From: Candidatus Methanomethylicaceae archaeon
Lineage (GTDB): Archaea > Thermoproteota > Methanomethylicia > Methanomethylicales > Methanomethylicaceae
Assembly: GCA_015660995.1 (NCBI GenBank)
Contig: JACTUC010000003.1
Location: 30,525-94,524 of the forward strand
Direction of reading: 5' to 3'
DNA length: 64,000 bases
A program made the position numbers and the translations under genes. Below are positions 50,521 through 61,550 of this stretch, one piece after another. Every line of letters starts with the position of its first letter. Position 1 is the first letter of the stretch. The notes beneath the pieces are model-generated. The model saw only the letters and a list, made by a program, of their open reading frames with translations. It did no database searches and was not told where the DNA came from.

Positions 50521-51030
50521 TCACTTTTTGGCCTTGAACTTCTCGGAGATCCTCTTGTCCTCTTCGACGATCTCAGCCTTGTAGTCCTCAATTATCCTGG
50601 AAAAAGAGCTCAAGAGCAGCTGCTCAATAGCCCTGCCAATGGACATCCCGTAGTTTTCGCACAGTGCGCTGATTTCTTGAGAATTGGCCTCGAGGAAGGG
50701 CACGATTGGTTCGCTCATGGCATCCGAAAGCATTTTGACGGTCTTTCTCTTCGGGTACCCCCCGAACCTCTCGAGGGATAACTCGAGTGCATAGAGATCG
50801 GAGCGGCTGTCGGTTGAGATTATTCTCCTTACCAACCCAAGCTCACGGAGCCTGTCAAGCCTCTTTATGAGGGCATCTTCCTTCACTTTTAGGATCTCAG
50901 CCATGCTTTCTTGCGTCATTGGCCCGTCTTGCAGAAAGAACATCACTTCCCTTAGTTCTTCGTCCATGTATGCATTTGCGAAGCCTAGCAGCTTCTCTTC
51001 AGGAATTACGAGTGTTACCATTTTTATCAC
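50521..51030 (-). CDS. Winged-helix transcriptional regulator, last gene of the mcrC operon
   Basis: wHTH segment (ESMAEILKVKEDALIKRLDRLRELGLVRR). 32-nt overlap with the upstream ORF. Confidence 0.5.
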   Translation of the reverse strand: MIKMVTLVIPEEKLLGFANAYMDEELREVMFFLQDGPMTQESMAEILKVKEDALIKRLDRLRELGLVRRIISTDSRSDLYALELSLERFGGYPKRKTVKMLSDAMSEPIVPFLEANSQEISALCENYGMSIGRAIEQLLLSSFSRIIEDYKAEIVEEDKRISEKFKAKK

Positions 51031-51469
51031 CTAGAGTCTTGAGGAACGTTCTTATCTTTGAGAGCATTACCTTGGCCTCCTCCTCGTTGCCAGGATAGGG
51101 GACTTTGATGAACGGGATCTTCTTCTGTGTAATCAGGTATATGAGGAACTCGTTAGTCCTTGCACAACTGGCGCACCCGAACAGCGCCTCGGACTCCTCC
51201 ACAATTATGGCGGCATCTGCCTCCTCGACCAGCGGGGCCATGAGCGCCAGTCGCCCCCTTACTCCTGATGGAACCTCTATGGCGACCCACTTGAGCCCCC
51301 GCCTCGGGAAGTCAGGGGTAATGTTCATAGGAGGCGAGTCGAGCTCGGGCTTGTTCAGGTTCTTTGACACCTCTTCACCGAGCCCCAATGGGGTATGACC
51401 CTCCCTCTTTACGAGATCGTAGAGTATTAGGCTATTGGGCGGGAATATGAATATCTTGGCCACTCGCAT
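50999..51469 (-). CDS. Uncharacterized protein co-transcribed with mcrC (candidate methanogenesis-associated protein)
   Basis: Strong SD-like GGAGGAG directly upstream of the ATG at 51469. Overlaps the mcrC 3' end by 38 nt. Contains a FGCASCARTNE motif. Confidence 0.4.
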   Translation of the reverse strand: MRVAKIFIFPPNSLILYDLVKREGHTPLGLGEEVSKNLNKPELDSPPMNITPDFPRRGLKWVAIEVPSGVRGRLALMAPLVEEADAAIIVEESEALFGCASCARTNEFLIYLITQKKIPFIKVPYPGNEEEAKVMLSKIRTFLKTLGDKNGNTRNS

Positions 51470-52115
51470 CTCCTCCTCTAGGCAGTTCTCCGCTTTCGAT
51501 CTTGCCTAGCCAGAACTTGGTCTTTATCACTATCTCATTGAGCTTCTCCCTGGGCGCGCTGACCCCCCTCACAACGCCTGTAATGAGGTCGACTATTTCG
51601 CCAGCGCACTCGACCTTCCCAGGAGGGGGCCTTACCAGCCGCGTTATTATACCTACCCTTGCGAAATCCTCATAGTCGACGGGAGCTTCACAGACAATAA
51701 TAATCGGAATGTCAACGAAGTGCAGGAAAGACTTCGCCTTGTGTACAACGTGCCCACCTATGCCACCCAGGTGGAACAGACCAAGTTTGAACCTTCTGAT
51801 CTGCATTATCTCCTTCTCGTTTATTGTTGCCATGGAACCTCCGGGTGCACCACTATAGGGCGAATCTGCCGGGATGCCTGAGCCGGAATCCAGCACAAGG
51901 ACACTGGTCCTTATTCCCTGTTCGCGGAGTCCATATGTGATCTCACAGACGGGTTTTGTGATGTGCCTCTTGCCCGGGGACATCGCGATCGCCACCACCT
52001 CGAACTTCTCGGACTCGGAGATAGTGCCTCGCTGCGCGAGGCCTCCACCCTCGCCCATACCTTGGGCTTCCCTGCAATCGACTATCTGGACGTTTCTACC
52101 CAGGGCATCCTGCAA
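51432..52115 (-). CDS. mcrC: Methyl-coenzyme M reductase operon protein C (McrC)-family protein
   Basis: N-terminal IVDCREAQGMGEGGGLAQRGT and AMSPGKRHITKPVCEITYGLRE blocks are characteristic of McrC. TTG start. Confidence 0.65.
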   Translation of the reverse strand: MQDALGRNVQIVDCREAQGMGEGGGLAQRGTISESEKFEVVAIAMSPGKRHITKPVCEITYGLREQGIRTSVLVLDSGSGIPADSPYSGAPGGSMATINEKEIMQIRRFKLGLFHLGGIGGHVVHKAKSFLHFVDIPIIIVCEAPVDYEDFARVGIITRLVRPPPGKVECAGEIVDLITGVVRGVSAPREKLNEIVIKTKFWLGKIESGELPRGGDASGQDIHIPAQ

Positions 52116-52156
52116 TCCGCTTACCTCGAGACAGTGTTAATAGCACAAACAGTCCT

Positions 52157-52501
52157 TTAACGCTTCTTTCGGGTATTCCTTTGGTACTCCCTTATGTAAT
52201 CCTTGACCGTAGGTTTAGGTTTTGTGAAACGCCCGTAGCGTACGTCATAGCCATAGGGCATCATCTGATCCATGACAGGTTTCAGCTTTGCAACAATAGC
52301 TTCAGCGTCGGTGCCCTCTTTTAAGATAACTATGAAGTGACCGACGAGAAAACCACCGCCACGCCAGTTGTGTGTCTTTACGCCGACGTCGGAGACCTCC
52401 TCCATGTCCTTTATTATCTGGACAAATTCGTCGGATTTCTTCCGTTCCATGAGTCTTCGGGGCAAGATGTCAATATCAGGAGTTCCTGAATAATCAGGCA
52501 T
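52157..52501 (-). CDS. Uncharacterized small protein, first gene of the mcrC-side operon
   Basis: 114 aa, ATG start at the divergent promoter. No family assignable. Confidence 0.35.
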   Translation of the reverse strand: MPDYSGTPDIDILPRRLMERKKSDEFVQIIKDMEEVSDVGVKTHNWRGGGFLVGHFIVILKEGTDAEAIVAKLKPVMDQMMPYGYDVRYGRFTKPKPTVKDYIREYQRNTRKKR

Positions 52502-52568: not shown

Positions 52569-54095
52569 TTGAGGGTATCAATAGACGGCAAGCAGGTTGA
52601 GGTCGAGCCCAGCACAACGATAGGTTCTGTGGCGAAGACTCTAGGAATAGAACTTGCAACCGGTTGCATATTGGCAGTGAAGAAGGAAGTCGAAGGCGAG
52701 AAGGTCCAGACCAACCTGTACGAGGTTTACACATCAAAAGGGAAGATGGTAATCAGGATAGAGTGCGAAAAGATCCTCGACGGCTGGCGAAAGACATTCA
52801 AGAAGTTCGAAGGCACAGGCATAAGGTGGGTCACAAGGGATGCGGTAGTCTTTGGCCCCATCGTCAGCGACTTCGAGCCTTCCAGGGAATCAGTTGAGCT
52901 CAGGCAGTACGAGATCACCCTAAGCCTTGGTGGCTATAGCAGCGATAACACTCACCTTGTCTTCGGCCGCAGGCTACACAGTAGCTTATACGCGCCGCCC
53001 AAGGGGTGCGGGGTGCTAGGTAGAGTCGTATATGGTAGGCATCTAGTTGACGAGCTGAAGATGGGAGACAGGATTGTCAAGGTTGAGCCAGTCATAGAGA
53101 TAAAGACCGGCGAAGGCGCGGTCTTCAAGGCTGACAGGGGTTATCAGATCAAGGAGCCGGTCCAGATCTTCACGAAGCTCGGGATCGAGCTAGATGGTGC
53201 ATCGCCCTTGAGTGGGGAGCTCGTGTATAAGGTCACAGGCAACGACATGCTGACCATTGACAGGATAACAAGCAGGTTCGTAGCGTGCGACAGCATGAGC
53301 ATGGGTGCCCTGGCTAGCGAGAGGCAGGAAAGGAGGTCCAGGGGGATCGTTACTGTGAGGAATTCGGGAGCCAATTCGGGCTCGGTTTACGTTTATTTGA
53401 AGGAGGCTGCTCTGACCCTTGCGCACAATATAGCTGGCAGGGTGATGGAAGGCATGGAGCTTGCCGACGTCACGGAGAACGGCGATAGGATATCAGTGAA
53501 GGTATCTCCTCAAATGCTTAGTCTACTGGGCAGGACGCAAAAAGACTCAGGGGAGTTGCTGAAGAGCCGCGGGATCAAGCAGAAAAGGAGCGGTGACTCT
53601 TCGGACAGTGCTATTGTGGTCGAGCAGGACCCGCCGACCACCCTGGAGCTTTTGGCAAAGGGCGAGGCCACGTGCTTTGGGGTAAAACCCTCGGAGCTGA
53701 TCGGCATCCGCCTCTTTGGCAAGGAGGCTCCTAATTCCGTGAGGTATTTCAGGCGACTTACCGGGTTGGAACTGAGGAAGACGGGCAAGATGACGGTCTA
53801 TTTTACGACGCCCAAGTCTGAGATGATACTCTTCAAGGGCGACGAGGTCATGGCAAAGGAACTCCTGCCAGAGAACGTGCCCGAAAGGAAGGTTGGCGCG
53901 AACATTCTGGGGGTGACAAACGCGGTGAAGAAGTTTGCGGGAATGGTGGGTGTGCGCTTCACTGAGAGTGCCGAGTTTGGCCCGACGGCAGAGAAGTTCG
54001 AGGGGACAAACATCATCGGGGAGGTCGTGGCTAACCTGGAGGGAGTGAAGAAGCTGGGCGGGAAGAAGACGGTATACATCGCGGAGGTAAAATGA
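52569..54095 (+). CDS. Methanogenesis marker protein 3-like (UPF0288 family)
   Basis: 508 aa, size and composition fit Mmp3. Located in operon with atwA. Confidence 0.55.
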   Translation: MRVSIDGKQVEVEPSTTIGSVAKTLGIELATGCILAVKKEVEGEKVQTNLYEVYTSKGKMVIRIECEKILDGWRKTFKKFEGTGIRWVTRDAVVFGPIVSDFEPSRESVELRQYEITLSLGGYSSDNTHLVFGRRLHSSLYAPPKGCGVLGRVVYGRHLVDELKMGDRIVKVEPVIEIKTGEGAVFKADRGYQIKEPVQIFTKLGIELDGASPLSGELVYKVTGNDMLTIDRITSRFVACDSMSMGALASERQERRSRGIVTVRNSGANSGSVYVYLKEAALTLAHNIAGRVMEGMELADVTENGDRISVKVSPQMLSLLGRTQKDSGELLKSRGIKQKRSGDSSDSAIVVEQDPPTTLELLAKGEATCFGVKPSELIGIRLFGKEAPNSVRYFRRLTGLELRKTGKMTVYFTTPKSEMILFKGDEVMAKELLPENVPERKVGANILGVTNAVKKFAGMVGVRFTESAEFGPTAEKFEGTNIIGEVVANLEGVKKLGGKKTVYIAEVK

Positions 54096-54547
54096 TGATC
54101 AAGACTTATCTGGCGATGCTCTCGACCGACTCGAACCTGACGCCTTCCATGCTGGCAGAGAAGGTAGCGACCATTGGAGGGGTGGAGTACAAGGAGACTT
54201 GCTATGGCCTGCTGCTGGAGGGGGAGGAGGAGACTCTCGAGAAGGTCATGGATGAGCTCAGGAGGATGGATCCCAACAGGATCTTCTTCAAGGTAAGGGG
54301 TTACAAGATAGGGGACGCAAGGATCTGTAGGGCCAAGAGGGGAGGTGGACCAAGGCCTGGATACCACGTGCTTGGCGTCGAGAGGGAAGCCTTGAAGAAC
54401 GTCTCCAAAGCGCTGGACAGCTCCGAACTGCCGACCTATGCCGAGAAGAAGAAGGGGAAGCTGAACGTGGATTCACTGAAGAAGATCATCGAGAAGGAAG
54501 AACCGAGAGAGGAAAAGGGAAAGATAGACGGAGGGAAGAAGGATTAG
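54092..54547 (+). CDS. Methanogenesis marker protein 6-like
   Basis: 151 aa with RICRAKRGGGPRPGYH motif. 4-nt overlap with the upstream gene. Confidence 0.45.
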   Translation: MMIKTYLAMLSTDSNLTPSMLAEKVATIGGVEYKETCYGLLLEGEEETLEKVMDELRRMDPNRIFFKVRGYKIGDARICRAKRGGGPRPGYHVLGVEREALKNVSKALDSSELPTYAEKKKGKLNVDSLKKIIEKEEPREEKGKIDGGKKD

Positions 54548-54584: not shown

Positions 54585-55094
54585 ATGTACGAGTACATAG
54601 CCAAGAAGACTCTTGAGGATCTGGCGCTTGGGGGCAGCGTAACTGGACTCAAGATGTGCATGCGCTCCGAGATACCCCTCTTCATCATAAAGATCAAGTT
54701 CAGGGAGGCTATGGGTAAGAATGCACTAGGCGGTCTCGCCAATATCGAGGAACGCGAGAACGGATCCAAGATAACCCTCGAAAGTGAGATCGATCTTGGC
54801 GATGCCCTCAAGACACTGTGGAGCACCTTCGGGAGAGACAAGGTCGAGCAGTCCGGGAGGACGGACATTATTGTGTCCGGCGTTGCGCCAAAGGACCTCC
54901 GGGATTTGAAGATAAGGGACAAGGCAATTGACGTCCCAGCTAGGATAAACGAACTCGCAGCAAGAATCATACCCGAGGGTCTGAGGGTCAGGAGCATAAT
55001 CAGAGAGCCCGGGGTCATGACATTCATAGCTGCGGAGGACCCAATGAGGGAGGAGTGGAAGGATATGGGGCGGAAGCTGGAGGTCGACGAGTAA
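54585..55094 (+). CDS. Methanogenesis marker protein (Mmp17- or Mmp5-like), uncertain
   Basis: 169 aa. Operon position between the mmp6-like and mmp7-like genes. Confidence 0.35.
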   Translation: MYEYIAKKTLEDLALGGSVTGLKMCMRSEIPLFIIKIKFREAMGKNALGGLANIEERENGSKITLESEIDLGDALKTLWSTFGRDKVEQSGRTDIIVSGVAPKDLRDLKIRDKAIDVPARINELAARIIPEGLRVRSIIREPGVMTFIAAEDPMREEWKDMGRKLEVDE

Positions 55095-56002
55095 TGCTCA
55101 AGTACATAATATTTGAGGGGGGACTATACAAGCACGAGATCCTGGAGGAGTTCCTGGAGGACATAGGTGGCTTCATAGTGCAGAGGGTCTCCGTGAGCCT
55201 AGATCTCATACTGAACCTTGCGGTCCCTGAGGAGGAGGTACAGAGGCTGAACGATATCGCTGTAGGGTTGAAAGGCAAGCTTAAGGAAGCCCCACTCATA
55301 GGGACGGAGGTCGCTGTGGTCGCACCGACGCTCTCTCGCCACCACTTGCCACACCCGTCATGCGACGTAGCGGAGAACCTCAGGCGGTATGGGGCGAAGA
55401 CCAATATCATCGGGCTGGCTAGGGGCGTCGGCCAGAAGATTGTCAATAGATCCACGAGAGAGAAGGAGCTCATAGAGGAACACGACCTGGCAGTCTTTAC
55501 TCTTGGCAACTTCGAGCATTGCCTAAAAGAAGCAAAGCTTCCGCTCTTCAAGGACCTGTCGATACCTGTAATCGTCACTGGCGGCCCTTATTTCAACGGC
55601 CTGCCAGGAGCACAGGGCTATGTCGGGGGAATAGGCAGGTTCCCGGAGAGAGCGAGGACGGGCGATCTGATAGAGAGGCTGAATGCGGTCTCAGAGCTCT
55701 CCGGGAAGGTCGTGGAGCAGAGGAGGCGTGAGCTGGACCTCGATCCACTGATTGTTAACCCCATTGTCGTGAAGGAGGAAGTGGAGAGGCAGGTGCCGGA
55801 GGCTGAAGAGGGTCTCTCCCCCAACCCGATAACACTTAAGGTCGAGGGGGTTAGGATAAAGCTGCCATACGACGAGTACCATGAGAAGGTCGAGGGGATC
55901 AAGGTCGAGGGGAGAAGGCTTGGCGACATCGCAAATATCAGCAAGTCGCTCATGAGAGACTACATCCTTGTCCGCGTACTGCCGGAGTCAATGTTCAAGT
56001 GA
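55094..56002 (+). CDS. Methanogenesis marker protein 7-like
   Basis: About 302 aa from the ATG overlapping the upstream stop (TAATG). Size fits Mmp7. Confidence 0.4.
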   Translation: MLKYIIFEGGLYKHEILEEFLEDIGGFIVQRVSVSLDLILNLAVPEEEVQRLNDIAVGLKGKLKEAPLIGTEVAVVAPTLSRHHLPHPSCDVAENLRRYGAKTNIIGLARGVGQKIVNRSTREKELIEEHDLAVFTLGNFEHCLKEAKLPLFKDLSIPVIVTGGPYFNGLPGAQGYVGGIGRFPERARTGDLIERLNAVSELSGKVVEQRRRELDLDPLIVNPIVVKEEVERQVPEAEEGLSPNPITLKVEGVRIKLPYDEYHEKVEGIKVEGRRLGDIANISKSLMRDYILVRVLPESMFK

Positions 56003-56012
56003 GGTATTTGAG

Positions 56013-57680
56013 ATGGTCTTAAGAGTGGAGTCACTTAGCAAACGGTACAGTTCGGATAATGTCACCGCCCTTGATTCGGTGAGCTTCAGTGTCAAGACGG
56101 GAGAGATAGTCGGCATCATCGGGGAGAGTGGGGCGGGCAAGACCACGCTCCTTAGGATCCTGAGGGGCGCGGAACCCTTCGACAGCGGCAGGATCTGCTT
56201 CGATAGGATGGTTATAGAACCATCGTCTCCCCAATCTGCCGTGATGGAATTCCAGAGGAAGACCGCGATACAGCTACAGCGTAGCTTCGGGCTCTGGCCT
56301 GAGAGCGCCCAGGACAATATTGTCAGGGCATTACGCTATGTTGACATCGGTGAGGAGAGCTTCCCCGACGACGAGGGTGAGGTGAGAGAATATCGAAAAA
56401 AGGCGATGGAGATACTGAAGGTCGTCGGTCTGGAGGGGAAGGCGAACCTATGGTCACAAGTCCTCAGCGGGGGCGAGAAGCAGAGGCTCATAGTGGCGAG
56501 GCAGATAGCGCGGAAGCCGAAGCTCCTGCTACTTGACGAGCCGGGGACCATGACAGACCCTGCCAGCAGGAAAGCGCTCGTGGAGACTCTGAGGCGCGTG
56601 AGGGACGAACTGAATACTAGCATCGTATTCGCATCGCACAACCCCCAGATGCATAGGGCTCTAGCGGACAGGATCCTGCTCCTCGAGAAGGGGAGGATCA
56701 AGGACGACGGGAAGACAGAGAAGGTCCTGAAAGAGTTCCTGTCGGGTCTGGAGAAGCCACTGGAGAAGGAGAAAATCCCCGGGCCCACAGTCATGAAGAT
56801 GGTCCATGTCTCGAAGATTTATGACTTATTCTCCTATGGCAGAGTATTTGAGCTCCTGGACACGAACCTCGAGTTCAGGCGTGGGGAGATAGTTGGCATA
56901 GTTGGACCCTCCAGCGCTGGCAAGACAGTTATACTGAGGATGATGGCTGGGTTGGAGCTCCCGGACACTGGTGAGGTCAAACTTCTCCACAAGGGAGAGT
57001 GGGTGGCATTGGGTAAGTTTGGTAGGAAGAGCCTCCATGCCAGGACCCATATTGGCATGTTACACCAGGAGTTCGATCTGTCGTATTGGGCGAGAGTCCT
57101 TGACCTCTTCGCTGCCCGCCTCGGGATGAAGGACCCGAAGATGATGGAAGCTGCCCTCAGGAGGGGAGAGAAGGCTGGGATAAAAGATGAGGTAGTGGAC
57201 GCACTCAGCAGGGCTGCCGAACTTCCGGAGAGCGAGATGGAGGAGAGGCTGAGGGAGATAGGCCTAGACCGTGAGGTCCTTAAGCAGCTCTTCAAGAGCA
57301 AGGATCCGGAGAAGGCGAAGGATGTGGCCCTGGCAGCGCTCCAAGAAATGGGGCTGGACAGGGGAATTCTAGATAGGTACGTCTATGAGCTCTCGGGAGG
57401 TGAGAAGATCAGAGTGGCTTTAGCGCTTTCCCTCGTATTCAACCCCGAGGTCCTGTTACTGGATGAGCCTTTTGGTGACTTGGATCCCCTTACGCTGCGC
57501 AAGGTCGCAAACTCCCTGAAGAGGGTCAAGAAATCCTTCAGGCCGGCGATAGTCATCGTCAGCCACCAGCTCGATTTCGTAGAGGAGGTGGCGGACAGGT
57601 GCATCCTAATAGCTGAAGGAAAAGTTATAATGGAGGGAGACCCCTCAAAAGTTATCAATCATTTCAACGGGAGTGCCTAG
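56013..57680 (+). CDS. atwA: Methyl-coenzyme M reductase system component A2 (AtwA), tandem ABC-type ATPase
   Basis: Two nucleotide-binding domains, each with Walker A (GESGAGKTT; GPSSAGKTV), signature (LSGGEKQRL; LSGGEKIRV) and Walker B. No TM domain. Confidence 0.8.
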   Translation: MVLRVESLSKRYSSDNVTALDSVSFSVKTGEIVGIIGESGAGKTTLLRILRGAEPFDSGRICFDRMVIEPSSPQSAVMEFQRKTAIQLQRSFGLWPESAQDNIVRALRYVDIGEESFPDDEGEVREYRKKAMEILKVVGLEGKANLWSQVLSGGEKQRLIVARQIARKPKLLLLDEPGTMTDPASRKALVETLRRVRDELNTSIVFASHNPQMHRALADRILLLEKGRIKDDGKTEKVLKEFLSGLEKPLEKEKIPGPTVMKMVHVSKIYDLFSYGRVFELLDTNLEFRRGEIVGIVGPSSAGKTVILRMMAGLELPDTGEVKLLHKGEWVALGKFGRKSLHARTHIGMLHQEFDLSYWARVLDLFAARLGMKDPKMMEAALRRGEKAGIKDEVVDALSRAAELPESEMEERLREIGLDREVLKQLFKSKDPEKAKDVALAALQEMGLDRGILDRYVYELSGGEKIRVALALSLVFNPEVLLLDEPFGDLDPLTLRKVANSLKRVKKSFRPAIVIVSHQLDFVEEVADRCILIAEGKVIMEGDPSKVINHFNGSA

Positions 57681-57681
57681 A

Positions 57682-59589
57682 ATGGACTGCGAAGTCAGGT
57701 TCCTCCCCGAGGGCAAGAGGAGTACGGTGCCCGAGGGGTCGACAATAATGTTTGCAGCGATAGAGAGCGGGGTCGACCTTTCCAATATCTGCAGCGGCAA
57801 GGGATACTGCGGGAAGTGCATTGTGGAGGTACTGAATGGAGAGCTGTCACCGCTGACTGATCAGGAGAAGAAGAGGATCCCGCCTGAGAAGCTGGCCAAG
57901 GGCTATAGGCTCGCCTGCCAAGCCCATATCGCAGGTGACGTCGTGGTGAGGGTGCCAGACCAGAGCAGGGCGGGTAGGCAGCGCCTCGTCATAATGGGCA
58001 AGGAGCCGCCGGTGACGCTCAAACAGAATGTAGAGAAGGTATATGTGGAGCTGGTTGCACCAACCCTCCAAGATCCAATGGCGGATGACGAGCGCCTTCT
58101 CAGGGCACTTGCAGAAAAGGGGTACGGCGGGCTGAAGGCGGACTTCATAATAACCAAAGAGCTACCGAAGGTGCTGCGGAAGAGTGGCTGGAAAGCCACT
58201 GTAACGATCCTTGGGAAGAAAGAAATAGTTAACATTCAGGCAGGTGACACGAAGACCCAGAACTTTGGCGTGGCAGTAGATATTGGAACCACTAAGCTGG
58301 CCGTCTTCCTAGTTGATCTCACTGATGGCAACCTGATATTCGCAGATGGTATGATGAACCCTCAGATAAGGTACGGTGAGGACGTCATCTCTAGGATCAA
58401 CTTCGCCACGCAGGGTGAGAAGGAGCTCAAGGAAATACAGAGCACGATCATCGGTGGCATCAACGAACTCATTTGCAAGGGAGTTGGAGAAACGGCGATA
58501 GATGCGCAGGACCTGTATGAGCTAGTTGCGGTCGGAAACACCGCAATGCACCACCTGTTTGTGGGGATGCAGATCAAGAGCCTAGGCCTCTGCCCATACC
58601 CTGCCGGCCTGGGAAGAGCCTATGACATCAAATCCAGGGAGATGAACATTGCGATCAACCCTTCAGGCAACGTTCACGTGCTCCCGAACCTGGCAGGCTT
58701 CGTCGGGGCGGACGCTATCGCTGATATCCTTGCGTCGAGGCTTCACGAGAAGGAGAAACTTACTCTGCTCATGGACGTCGGGACCAACACCGAGGTCATG
58801 CTCGGCAGCAGGGATGGCATCTGGTCCTGCTCCACGGCTTCTGGTCCGGCATTCGAGGGAGCACACATAAAGTGCGGCATGAGGGCAGCTACTGGCGCTG
58901 TGGAGAAGGTAAAGATAACGCCTGAGTTCGACGTGACCTACAAGACAATTGAGGATGAAAAAGCACGCGGCATCTGTGGCTCGGGTATAATCGACGCGGT
59001 GGCGGAAGCACTGAAAAGCGGTGTCATTGACACTTCTGGGAAGTTTATCCTTCAAGGCCACAAGAGGGTCAAAGGGGAGGGTGCTGCCAAGGAGTTCATC
59101 CTGATATACAAGGATGAGACCTCGACTGGGAAGGAGGATATTGTGCTAACACAGGATGATGTGAGGGAGATACAGAAGGCCAAGGCCGCAATGTACGGTG
59201 GCTACGCGACGCTTATGAGAAAGGCAGGTTTTAAGAAGGATGATCTAAACGAGATCGTGATCGCCGGAGCCTTCGGGAACTATATAGACCCGTCCAGCGC
59301 AAGGACCATCGGCATGATACCCGAGATACCACTGGAGAAGGTATCCTTCCTCGGCAACACAGCTGGCTCGGGCGCGAGGATGTGTCTAAAGTCGCTAGAC
59401 AAGAGACGGGAAGCCCAAGAGATCAACGACAAGATGAAGTACATCGAGCTGGCAGTTGAACCGATATTCGAGGAGGAGTACATCAATGCAATGTATATGC
59501 CAAACAGCAGGCTCGAGGAGTACCCCGAGACCGTGAAGGGGATAAGAGGACCAATGAATGTAAGGCGCTACGTCCGAAGATCGGTTTAG
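57682..59589 (+). CDS. RACE/RamA-type ATP-dependent reductive activase: N-terminal plant-type [2Fe-2S] ferredoxin plus ASKHA (DUF4445) ATPase domain
   Basis: Cys pattern C-x5-C-x2-C...C (NICSGKGYCGKC...LAC). DUF4445/COG3894 motifs DIGTTKLAV, VGNTAMHHLF, LMDVGTNTEV, GPAFEGAHIKCGMRA, ICGSGIIDA. Start is 2 nt after the atwA stop. Confidence 0.8.
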   Translation: MDCEVRFLPEGKRSTVPEGSTIMFAAIESGVDLSNICSGKGYCGKCIVEVLNGELSPLTDQEKKRIPPEKLAKGYRLACQAHIAGDVVVRVPDQSRAGRQRLVIMGKEPPVTLKQNVEKVYVELVAPTLQDPMADDERLLRALAEKGYGGLKADFIITKELPKVLRKSGWKATVTILGKKEIVNIQAGDTKTQNFGVAVDIGTTKLAVFLVDLTDGNLIFADGMMNPQIRYGEDVISRINFATQGEKELKEIQSTIIGGINELICKGVGETAIDAQDLYELVAVGNTAMHHLFVGMQIKSLGLCPYPAGLGRAYDIKSREMNIAINPSGNVHVLPNLAGFVGADAIADILASRLHEKEKLTLLMDVGTNTEVMLGSRDGIWSCSTASGPAFEGAHIKCGMRAATGAVEKVKITPEFDVTYKTIEDEKARGICGSGIIDAVAEALKSGVIDTSGKFILQGHKRVKGEGAAKEFILIYKDETSTGKEDIVLTQDDVREIQKAKAAMYGGYATLMRKAGFKKDDLNEIVIAGAFGNYIDPSSARTIGMIPEIPLEKVSFLGNTAGSGARMCLKSLDKRREAQEINDKMKYIELAVEPIFEEEYINAMYMPNSRLEEYPETVKGIRGPMNVRRYVRRSV

Positions 59590-59605: not shown

Positions 59606-60160
59606 ATGGAAGGGCAAGATGCATGCGCGCGTGCGGAGGAAGCCATGAGGGCGCTCAAAGGGATCTTGAAGGTCCAGCTTCTCACCGACGAGGACAGGAA
59701 GGAGCTCTCGAGGCTGGAGCAGGAAGCGGAGGGCAAAGTGATGATGGGGCTCTGCCCCGGGACGAACGTTGGCATCGCTGAAGCCTTGAAGAAGAAGCAT
59801 ATCTTTGCCTGTATTACTGACAACACCATGGTCTGGCCCCGCAGCTCGTACATAAAGCTCGTCTGTGGCGAGGATGTGATCGGCCAGGACATATATGACG
59901 AGTCTGAACTCGAGAAGATGAAGAGCGAAGGCAATCTAGTTGCAGGCAACTTAGTTTTTTACAGGAACAAGATCAAGGTTCTGAAGGAGCGGAGGGAGGG
60001 AATGATGGTGCATATGCTGCCCATGCAAATACCAGAGCTAACCGCATGCGGCGCGGTTGTGGCCAGCCCGTCACCACCCACGGACCTATACCTGAAGAAT
60101 AGGCTCGGGCAGAATACAGAGGACAGCCGTCTTGGTTCGATAATAGTGGGCGTGGACTAG
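59606..60160 (+). CDS. Uncharacterized protein, last gene of the atwA-side operon
   Basis: 184 aa, soluble, Cys-containing (CPGTNVG, FACITDN). 16-nt gap after the RamA-like gene. Confidence 0.35.
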   Translation: MEGQDACARAEEAMRALKGILKVQLLTDEDRKELSRLEQEAEGKVMMGLCPGTNVGIAEALKKKHIFACITDNTMVWPRSSYIKLVCGEDVIGQDIYDESELEKMKSEGNLVAGNLVFYRNKIKVLKERREGMMVHMLPMQIPELTACGAVVASPSPPTDLYLKNRLGQNTEDSRLGSIIVGVD

Positions 60161-60336
60161 CCCTCTCTTTACGCCTTTTTGATATTTTGAGTGAATAAAC
60201 TGTAGTAATGGAATAAAATAATTTATTCAGCTTTACTTTTCTCTTTTGTGTAAGACAGTTGTTGGAATAAAGGGGATAGTACTTATATTCAAGAGTACAA
60301 ACTATGTACTGTAATGAGAGGGATGGGGGTGAATTA

Positions 60337-60942
60337 ATGAGTTTATTTGTATTTCTAGTTTGGCCTCTATTGATGTTCGTCTTCGGGTTCTTCCCGTTAT
60401 CATTGGCGTTGTTAGGGAAGGCAGACATGGTGGCTTCGCTTAAGTTTGCTATTGTTCCAGGCATCTTCGGATTTATGATGGCTACATACTTCTTTACAAC
60501 CGCAAACAACGTCCTATTACCAACGATTGTCCAAACACTATTAGGTGCAAACACCAGCCTTGCCGCTGTTGCCCAGAACCTATATGCTGTCCAGGTTGTC
60601 GCAATAATACTTGGCTTGGCATCTGCCGCATTCGTCTGTGTAGGGATTACTGGCTTCTACTTCAAGCCCGAAGCTGCGCCAGTCACGGCATGGGTTGTAA
60701 ACTTCACCGGCATACTATTGATAATCCTAGGCATTTTCGTGGGATACTGGCATACCTACCTGGCATTTAATGAAGTGTACATTGCAGCCGCTATGGTATT
60801 CTTGTTTGGCGTCGCTTGCCTTGTTGCTGGGTTCTCAGTACTTGGCAAGATGAAGGGCGGCTATCCTCTGCTGGCTATTGTTGTCATCAATTTCCTACTA
60901 GCTTTCGTCATACTCTTCATGAACCTAACGACCATAGCATAA
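60337..60942 (+). CDS. Polytopic membrane protein, unknown function
   Basis: About 6 TM helices. Start taken at the internal ATG (MSLFVF). Confidence 0.4.
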   Translation: MSLFVFLVWPLLMFVFGFFPLSLALLGKADMVASLKFAIVPGIFGFMMATYFFTTANNVLLPTIVQTLLGANTSLAAVAQNLYAVQVVAIILGLASAAFVCVGITGFYFKPEAAPVTAWVVNFTGILLIILGIFVGYWHTYLAFNEVYIAAAMVFLFGVACLVAGFSVLGKMKGGYPLLAIVVINFLLAFVILFMNLTTIA

Positions 60943-61046
60943 ACAAATGGGGCACAAAACCCCCTTTTTATTCTTTTTTTGAAGTTTTTTAACTAGGAAA
61001 ACCGTCTTTTATATGCATTCATGTGCAGAGATATACTTGAATTGCC

Positions 61047-61550
61047 ATGTGGACAGAGATCGTAAAGTTTTTTTCAGCCTCCCCTTCGAAACTTAAGGTT
61101 GCGAGGCTCATGGTGGAACTCGGTTTCAGCATAAATACTGAAGGCAAGATTAGCTGTGGAGAGGTGGAGATCCCTGATTCGAGCATAGCCCGTGCGACCA
61201 ATGCGGATAGGCGGGTAGTAAGGGAAACCATAAAGGACATACTCGCAGATGCCAGGATGAAGAGGATATTTGTCGGTATTAAGCCCGCGGGGAGTTTTCT
61301 AATAGATGTTGCGCCAACGCTTGGCTATGCTGTTGTCGAAATTAGGGCGCGCCCAGATGCGGTTGGGGTGATAGCTAAGGCCACTGGGTTAATAGCTGAA
61401 GCTGGCCTTTCAATAAGGCAGATCCTCGCCGAAGACCCTGACCTGAACCCTGATCCAAAACTCCTTATAATCACCGAGAAAAGGGTTCCGGGAGAGGTAG
61501 TATCCAAGCTTCTCAACATTCCTACGGTGACAAAGGTTTCCATTAGTTGA
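61047..61550 (+). CDS. ACT-domain protein (predicted regulator of amino-acid metabolism, COG2150-like)
   Basis: 167 aa. C-terminal ACT-like beta-alpha-beta-beta-alpha-beta region. Confidence 0.45.
   Translation: MWTEIVKFFSASPSKLKVARLMVELGFSINTEGKISCGEVEIPDSSIARATNADRRVVRETIKDILADARMKRIFVGIKPAGSFLIDVAPTLGYAVVEIRARPDAVGVIAKATGLIAEAGLSIRQILAEDPDLNPDPKLLIITEKRVPGEVVSKLLNIPTVTKVSIS

Follow-up and report, generated by a model that had tools for sequence, protein, structure and literature searches.

Does an ATP-dependent reductive activase encoded at the tail of an operon for the activation of methyl-coenzyme M reductase (MCR) work on MCR itself, or does it work on corrinoid proteins? The gene that raises this question lies on the plus strand at 57682-59589 of a 64,000-nucleotide stretch of a Candidatus Methanomethylicaceae contig (JACTUC010000003.1; the whole stretch is called the window here). 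Its open reading frame is intact and follows mmp3, mmp6, mmp17, mmp7 and a gene for a homologue of the MCR activation component A2, which we call A2h. A RACE-type enzyme in an Mmp operon looked like a candidate for the source of the low-potential electron of MCR in vivo. An earlier reading made from the letters of this DNA, referred to below as the sequence-only reading, had proposed that a RACE-like enzyme may have taken the slot of Mmp15 and serve the activation of MCR or, alternatively, that the gene is that of a corrinoid activase under common regulation with the MCR-activation genes. The loci of relatives and the partner gene of the activase favor the alternative: the gene probably encodes a RACo-type corrinoid reductive activase that is co-transcribed with the MCR-activation genes. 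By analogy with characterized activases, its substrates would be the corrinoid proteins of methyltransferases, which would make it a functional counterpart of RamA in an H2-dependent methyl-reducing methanogen.

By its architecture and motifs, the predicted protein is a genuine RACo/RACE-type (COG3894) activase. A Pfam search identified Fer2 (PF00111) at residues 11-82 (2e-10), RACo_linker (PF17650) at residues 108-191 (7e-22, 77 bits), Raco_middle (PF17651) at residues 195-357 (2e-52, 177 bits) and RACo_C_ter (PF14574, the ASKHA ATPase) at residues 360-616 (9e-96, 320 bits). The linker, middle and ASKHA models come in the correct order, the matches span the whole protein, and they score well over the gathering thresholds. 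In a search of the PDB, residues 4-616 aligned over the full length with residues 5-629 of RACo (3ZYY) at 397 bits. The ligands of the [2Fe-2S] cluster, Cys37, 43, 46 and 79, and the two ASKHA phosphate motifs, AVDIGTTKL (DxGTT, phosphate-1) and LLMDVGTNTEV (DxGTN, phosphate-2), are conserved at the aligned positions in about 120 homologues, and the phosphate motifs also align with those of 3ZYY. Given the Pfam domains, the 3ZYY alignment and the cysteine and ASKHA motifs, the sequence-only reading was correct in describing a protein of 635 aa in which a [2Fe-2S] ferredoxin and an ASKHA domain are combined as in RACo/RamA.

We compared the protein with the known systems that it resembles. RACo of Carboxydothermus hydrogenoformans (3ZYY, 4C1N) has the same four-part architecture, cluster cysteines and nucleotide motifs, whereas the window activase is archaeal, does not lie beside acs/CoFeSP genes, is encoded by the last mmp-linked gene of an MCR-activation operon and has as its partner a protein of 184 amino acids that we call unk184. 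Around Ser398, the Co ligand of RACo, the sequence is TASGPAFEG in the window activase and CSAGPAFEG in RACo. The top NCBIfam match was AcsV (NF040756), which aligned end to end (residues 5-615 vs 2-632) at 509 bits; because this is under the curated cut-off of 800, the activase is not an AcsV equivalog, and its genomic context also differs from that of AcsV. RamA, which acts on the methylamine corrinoid proteins of Methanosarcina barkeri, shares a common ASKHA/RACo core with the window activase and would have the same presumed job, the ATP-dependent reduction of Co(II) to Co(I) in methylotrophic methanogenesis. The match to the RamA model (TIGR04270) was, however, restricted to the ASKHA core, at 161 bits (cut-off 500), and RamA has a C-terminal 2x[4Fe-4S] and no N-terminal [2Fe-2S], whereas no Fer4 domain was found in the window activase by Pfam. 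Mmp15 (TIGR03286, BcrAD/BadFG) likewise has an ASKHA fold and is encoded near MCR-maturation genes, but the activase has no detectable similarity to the Mmp15 models. In the hidden Markov model (HMM) comparison that the sequence-only reading had suggested, of an Mmp15 with a COG3894 assignment, the RACo Pfam models matched, and neither TIGR03286 nor PF01869 (BcrAD_BadFG) did at E<=0.001. We also considered that the activase might be a divergent Mmp15 and rejected this, given the lack of a model match and the true Mmp15 present in relatives.

The gene that comes next downstream, unk184, has no Pfam and no NCBIfam match. Its family comprises 112 representative clusters in 1.84 billion proteins, and an AlphaFold2 model made with the alignment had a predicted local distance difference test score (pLDDT) of 95 and a predicted nitroreductase-like fold. 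An unk184 open reading frame of 181-193 aa comes directly after RACo in almost all mmp-linked loci (related loci are cited by number, and lineage names, Methanomethylicia/Verstraetearchaeota and relatives, are as given by the source records). An exception is L003, with no unk184 after RACo; in L043, which comes from the same metagenome and has a tetranucleotide correlation with it of r=0.99, the gene just ahead of that for a B12-binding protein is an unk184 homologue. A scan of metagenomes with the unk184 alignment gave 40 loci, and unk184 adjoined a RACo/RamA-type activase in 28 of these and a B12-binding corrinoid protein in 4 more (32/40); 7 of the other 8 are short or truncated contigs. 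At L052, unk184 is followed by a true RamA-type activase with the C-terminal 2x[4Fe-4S], then by MttB and a corrinoid protein, so that unk184 homologues accompany true RamA-type genes too.

Two further sets of loci separate the pair from the MCR-activation genes. L015, L033 and L034, whose RACo is 59% identical to that of the window, keep the synteny RACo-unk184-TrpY-TIM-NAD synthase, and no mmp or A2h genes were found within 3-8 kb upstream of their RACo. The pair also occurs in L016 and L041 (unk184 HMM score, 216 bits), where it precedes the genes for MtmB and a URO-D methyltransferase, then pylD/C/B and the gene for a B12-binding protein. Taken together with the 40-locus scan, these mmp-less and MtmB-linked loci show that RACo and unk184, and not A2h and RACo, form the conserved two-gene unit. 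Judged from its sequence and contexts, unk184 looks like a candidate accessory of RamA/RACo activases that has not been described before, and we infer that it may help the activase by binding a flavin or a corrinoid, perhaps as the point of electron entry. Our literature searches turned up no account of RACo/RamA-type genes within an mmp operon and none of the unk184 family.

A segment of about 900 bp at 60117-61015 of the window, made up of the 3' end of unk184 and a low-GC region (GC about 0.46), has no counterpart in L019, the closest relative, which is collinear on both flanks at about 87-88% nucleotide identity. The low-GC region holds a hydrophobic open reading frame of 212 aa without a family match. 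Between the window and L019, unk184 is only 69% identical, vs 94% for RACo.

We next placed the activase among its relatives in a neighbor-joining (NJ) tree of 67 sequences rooted on bacterial RACo, in which the deeper nodes have 53-73% support. The mmp-linked activases of Methanomethylicales form one clade with 98-100% bootstrap. Its sister is a group in which L015 branches beside a pair made up of mmp-linked L009 and MtmB-linked L016; the RACo proteins of this pair, P0064 (L009) and P0063 (L016), are 81% identical. The next-outer groups, L012, L013, L014 and L017, are all methyltransferase-linked, and farther out lie activases of Bathyarchaeia and Asgard archaea, including that of L010, which lies beside MttB and a corrinoid protein. 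The NJ tree and the locus contexts together indicate that the mmp-linked activases are nested in a family with the genomic signature of corrinoid methyl transfer. Around Ser398, the sequence xASGPAFEG is shared by the mmp-linked and the methyltransferase-linked homologues, so that this region does not discriminate the two groups. One of these loci has a different kind of proximity between an activase and MCR: positions 10001-15674 of L017 contain a RACo-type gene (54% identical) next to an mtaA-like URO-D gene, directly upstream of mcrG-mcrA.

The explanation that we favor may then be put as follows. On the RACo paradigm, a cellular donor would pass one electron to the N-terminal [2Fe-2S] cluster, the ASKHA domain would bind ATP and dock on a Co(II)-corrinoid protein of the MtaC/MtmC/MtbC/MttC type, and ATP binding and hydrolysis would drive the uphill transfer that reduces Co(II) to Co(I) and restores methyl-transfer activity. 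The activase would act as a two-gene module with unk184, and in Methanomethylicales this module has become a fixed 3' extension of the mmp3-mmp6-mmp17-mmp7-A2h operon, coupled in translation to A2h. Because the module sits at the tail of the mmp operon, two systems that re-reduce a metal, one for Ni(I)-F430 in MCR and one for Co(I) in corrinoid proteins, would be co-expressed. Methanomethylicia rely on corrinoid methyltransferases (PMC10033731) and therefore need a corrinoid activase.

Several observations weigh against this explanation. No MttB, URO-D or B12-binding gene was found by tblastn in all 64 kb of the window, and Pfam identified no methyltransferase or corrinoid gene among the open reading frames of at least 150 aa at 28-64 kb. 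In Methanomethylicales, the activase is always tied to the mmp/A2h operon, often by an overlapping stop and start, and not to methyltransferase genes. Moreover, a second RACo paralogue (L010), which UniRef attributes to Methanomethylicus mesodigestus and whose tetranucleotide composition is Methanomethylicales-like, lies in an MttB/corrinoid cluster. Dedicated activases may therefore exist for at least some methyltransferases, which would weaken the assignment of a cognate substrate to the window activase. On the 1.52-Mb contig of Methanosuratincola verstraetei, no second RACo paralogue was found among the 120 matches listed (query P0110).

The linkage to the mmp genes is itself a firm observation. 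The order mmp3-mmp6-mmp17-mmp7-A2h-RACo, divergent from mmp5-mcrC-mcrD, was present in all Methanomethylicales loci examined and in the deeper lineage L009 (M. verstraetei L001, on the same 1.52-Mb contig, L003-L007, L019, L020, L023-L026, L028-L030 and L009), although the proteins have diverged to 60-67% identity; the L009 proteins share 54% (RACo) and 48% (A2h) identity with their window counterparts. A search of genome contigs with the activase alone returned 3 loci, all from Methanomethylicales. Since the adjacency is invariant, the linkage in Methanomethylicales is not random or accidental. In the window, the ATG of the activase (57682) lies 1 nt past the TAG of A2h (57678-57680), with a GGGAG motif 8 nt upstream of the ATG, whereas the two genes overlap by 11 nt in L001 and L003 and are 50 nt apart in L009. 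The 1-nt gap and the 11-nt overlap leave no room for a promoter before RACo, and mmp3 through A2h and RACo are likely co-transcribed. The sequence-only reading was thus right in placing the activase directly after the upstream stop, but the upstream gene is not atwA, as that reading had named it.

This gene, at 56013-57680, was rejected as atwA, the gene of component A2, because its product scores 314 bits against TIGR03269 (cut-off 517) and has no zinc motif. The L001 and L003 orthologues reach 322-323 bits with this model, compared with 754 bits for the canonical A2 of L003. In an alignment with the latter, which bears CxxC pairs at C71 and C87, A2h is missing the insert with CxxCx12CxxC and has no CxxC at all. 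The zinc-binding motif is what separates component A2 from the widespread A2 homologue MA_3967 (Adler & Nayak, bioRxiv 2026; Ramirez-Amador et al. 2025), and the A2 paralogues have been listed as AtwA1 and AtwA2 (Kaster et al. 2011). A2h resembles component A2 in being a double ABC nucleotide-binding-domain ATPase of a methanogen-specific family, here located directly past mmp7, but has neither the zinc motif nor the TIGR03269-level score of AtwA. Its position directly after mmp7 hints at an MCR-related role for this uncharacterized protein. Homologues about 45% identical to A2h occur in Methanobacterium and Methanomicrobiales. One of them, at 8001-17704 of L008 (a 1.9-Mb euryarchaeal contig; 45% identical), is without a RACo gene and adjoins oxidative-stress genes, namely a flavin reductase, Usp, two rubredoxins, an FprA-like flavodiiron protein, ferritin, peroxiredoxin and superoxide dismutase. 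In Methanomethylicia, the zinc-less A2h follows mmp7 (L003, 8338-10011) and the canonical A2 lies in a second cluster (L003, 19292-20890).

That second cluster also bears on the claim that the activase occupies the slot of Mmp15. In L003 and L004, mmp15 (BcrAD_BadFG, 653 bits; cut-off 456), YcaO, TfuA and the canonical A2 lie 4-9 kb downstream, and mmp15 is found about 9-10 kb downstream in L006, L007, L025, L026 and L028-L030 as well. Relatives thus keep mmp15-ycaO-tfuA-atwA 4-10 kb downstream of this operon, and the slot claim does not hold. No copy of mmp15 was found in the 64-kb window; by synteny, it is expected just past the window end.

The remaining features of the window and of the related loci are collected in Table 1. 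The mcrD-like, mcrC and mmp5 genes (50999-52501) are divergent from the mmp3 operon and have no mcrABG gene adjoining them; the same divergent arrangement is seen in L001, L003, L007, L009, L019, L024-L025 and L028-L030, and the mcrD-like orthologues in L001, L003 and L009 carry PF02505 (MCR_D). The gene for a TrpY-family regulator lies downstream of RACo, after unk184 where the latter is present, in most related loci, including the mmp-less L015 and L033. No tRNA or Rfam features were found in the window.

Table 1. Coordinates of the genes around the activase, of unk184 homologues elsewhere, and gene neighbors of related activases
Feature	Locus	Coordinates	Strand	Evidence or remarks
mmp5	window	50999..51469	-	TIGR03271 199 bits (cut-off 140)
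mcrC	window	51432..52115	-	TIGR03264 279 bits (cut-off 214)
mcrD-like, first gene of divergent mcrD-mcrC-mmp5 unit	window	52157..52501	-	TIGR03260 42 bits, sub-cut-off
mmp3	window	52569..54095	+	TIGR03268 485 bits (cut-off 234)
mmp6	window	54092..54547	+	TIGR03272 133 bits (cut-off 126)
mmp17	window	54585..55094	+	TIGR03291 97 bits (cut-off 67)
mmp7 (McrC paralogue; start codon uncertain)	window	55055..56002	+	TIGR03274 396 bits (cut-off 349), PF04609
A2h, double-ABC ATPase, A2 homologue (AtwA2/MA_3967 type)	window	56013..57680	+	TIGR03269 314 bits (cut-off 517)
RACo-type ATP-dependent reductive activase	window	57682..59589	+	635 aa; Pfam domains, PDB 3ZYY match
unk184, uncharacterized 184-aa protein	window	59606..60160	+	invariant GSPSPPxD motif, predicted nitroreductase-like fold
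TrpY-family regulator (ACT domain)	window	61047..61550	+	NF053754 190 bits (cut-off 180); syntenic position kept
unk184 homologue	L016	8566-9129		
unk184 homologue	L052	9968-10552		
unk184 homologue	L043	9983-10516		
Activase neighbors	L010			URO-D, MttB, B12-binding
Activase neighbors	L012			URO-D, MtmB, B12-binding
Activase neighbors	L013			B12-binding, MtmB
Activase neighbors	L014			URO-D
Activase neighbors	L017			URO-D, mcrGA

Could the activase instead supply MCR? The RACo-type protein and A2h, perhaps with unk184, might form an auxiliary ATP-driven low-potential electron input for MCR activation in Thermoproteota methanogens, the [2Fe-2S] cluster feeding the McrC/Mmp7/Mmp3 iron-sulfur chain or acting on F430 to regenerate Ni(I); we regard this as unlikely. 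The invariant mmp3-6-17-7-A2h-RACo order, with its overlapping or 1-nt junctions, in the Methanomethylicales loci and L009 speaks for it, as do the 2025 cryo-EM findings that McrC, Mmp7, Mmp17 and Mmp3 form part of the structure of the activation complex and the statement there that the physiological electron donor and the extra factors of this complex are unknown (PMC12176620). RamA-family genes usually adjoin the genes of their cognate substrates, and a separate paralogue apparently serves the MttB cluster in L010. Yet the L016 orthologue, so similar to the mmp-linked L009 copy, stands in a methylamine methyltransferase/pyl locus, the RACo-unk184 pair persists at loci without mmp genes, the unk184 family tracks corrinoid systems, A2h is not linked to RACo outside the class (L008), the Ser398 region has no clade-specific change, and relatives possess both a canonical A2 and an Mmp15. 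The more specific proposal, that A2h, RACo and unk184 are an extra ATP-driven input module for the McrC/Mmp7/Mmp17/Mmp3 complex in Methanomethylicales and a Nezhaarchaeales-like lineage, seems to us quite improbable; a corrinoid-activase scaffold would there have been recruited, exclusively or additionally, to regenerate Ni(I)-F430. The invariant linkage, the unknown donor and the second paralogue in the MttB cluster keep a role at the MCR complex alive as a slim chance, and the unk184 and methyltransferase contexts together with the nested position in the tree weaken it. For the sequence-only reading, this means that the evidence weighs against a RACE-like enzyme serving MCR activation in place of Mmp15: Mmp15 and canonical A2 are present in relatives, the gene upstream is an A2 paralogue, and RACo travels with unk184 as a pair that also occurs in methylamine-methyltransferase/corrinoid loci. 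Its other suggestion, a corrinoid activase co-regulated with MCR activation, is the one favored here. Two observations had been named as jointly telling against an MCR role, namely an mmp15 elsewhere and a clustering of the activase with methyltransferase genes; the former was seen in relatives, and the latter only in the nearest out-group orthologues (L016) and not in Methanomethylicales.

Two other explanations concern the target and the meaning of the gene order. The activase might act on a cobamide protein other than the methylotrophic MtxC proteins, such as CdhDE of CODH/ACS, MtrA or MtrH-associated corrinoid proteins, and the mmp position would then be irrelevant to the target. The top NCBIfam model is that of AcsV, the CoFeSP activase type of acetogens, and among solved structures the CoFeSP activator RACo comes closest; in Culexarchaeia, the sister class, RamA-like genes adjoin CODH genes (bioRxiv 10.1101/2022.04.06.487207), and L009 groups with sequences labeled Nezhaarchaeales, an order described with the Wood-Ljungdahl pathway and Mtr. 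However, the AcsV score is far under its cut-off, Methanomethylicia are reported to be without the Wood-Ljungdahl pathway and a complete Mtr, and the closest out-group contexts are MtmB, MttB and URO-D rather than CODH, so that we give this explanation little credence. Still less probable, in our view, is that the adjacency is inherited gene order only, with RACo-unk184 under its own promoter and neither co-expressed nor coordinated with mmp/A2h. The pair does move as an independent unit (L015, L016), the gap between A2h and RACo widens in L009, and the mmp-linked loci all belong to one class, so that shared descent could explain their conservation. The tight or overlapping junctions in the window, L001 and L003, with the internal GGGAG motif of the window, and the retention of the order despite the protein divergence argue against it.

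The activase protein itself belongs to the known RACo kind, and what is new is modest: a conserved operon context, the placement of A2h after mmp7, and an activase-associated family with a predicted nitroreductase fold. A RACE-type enzyme is an unlikely answer to the question of the MCR electron source; if the input module of A2h, RACo and unk184 were nevertheless true, the missing physiological reductant of MCR activation would be identified. In a whole archaeal class, a single operon appears to hold both ATP-dependent repair systems of methylotrophic methanogenesis, that for Co(I) and that for Ni(I), and the cultured strains of Methanosuratincola would provide a clean test bed for this shared operon.

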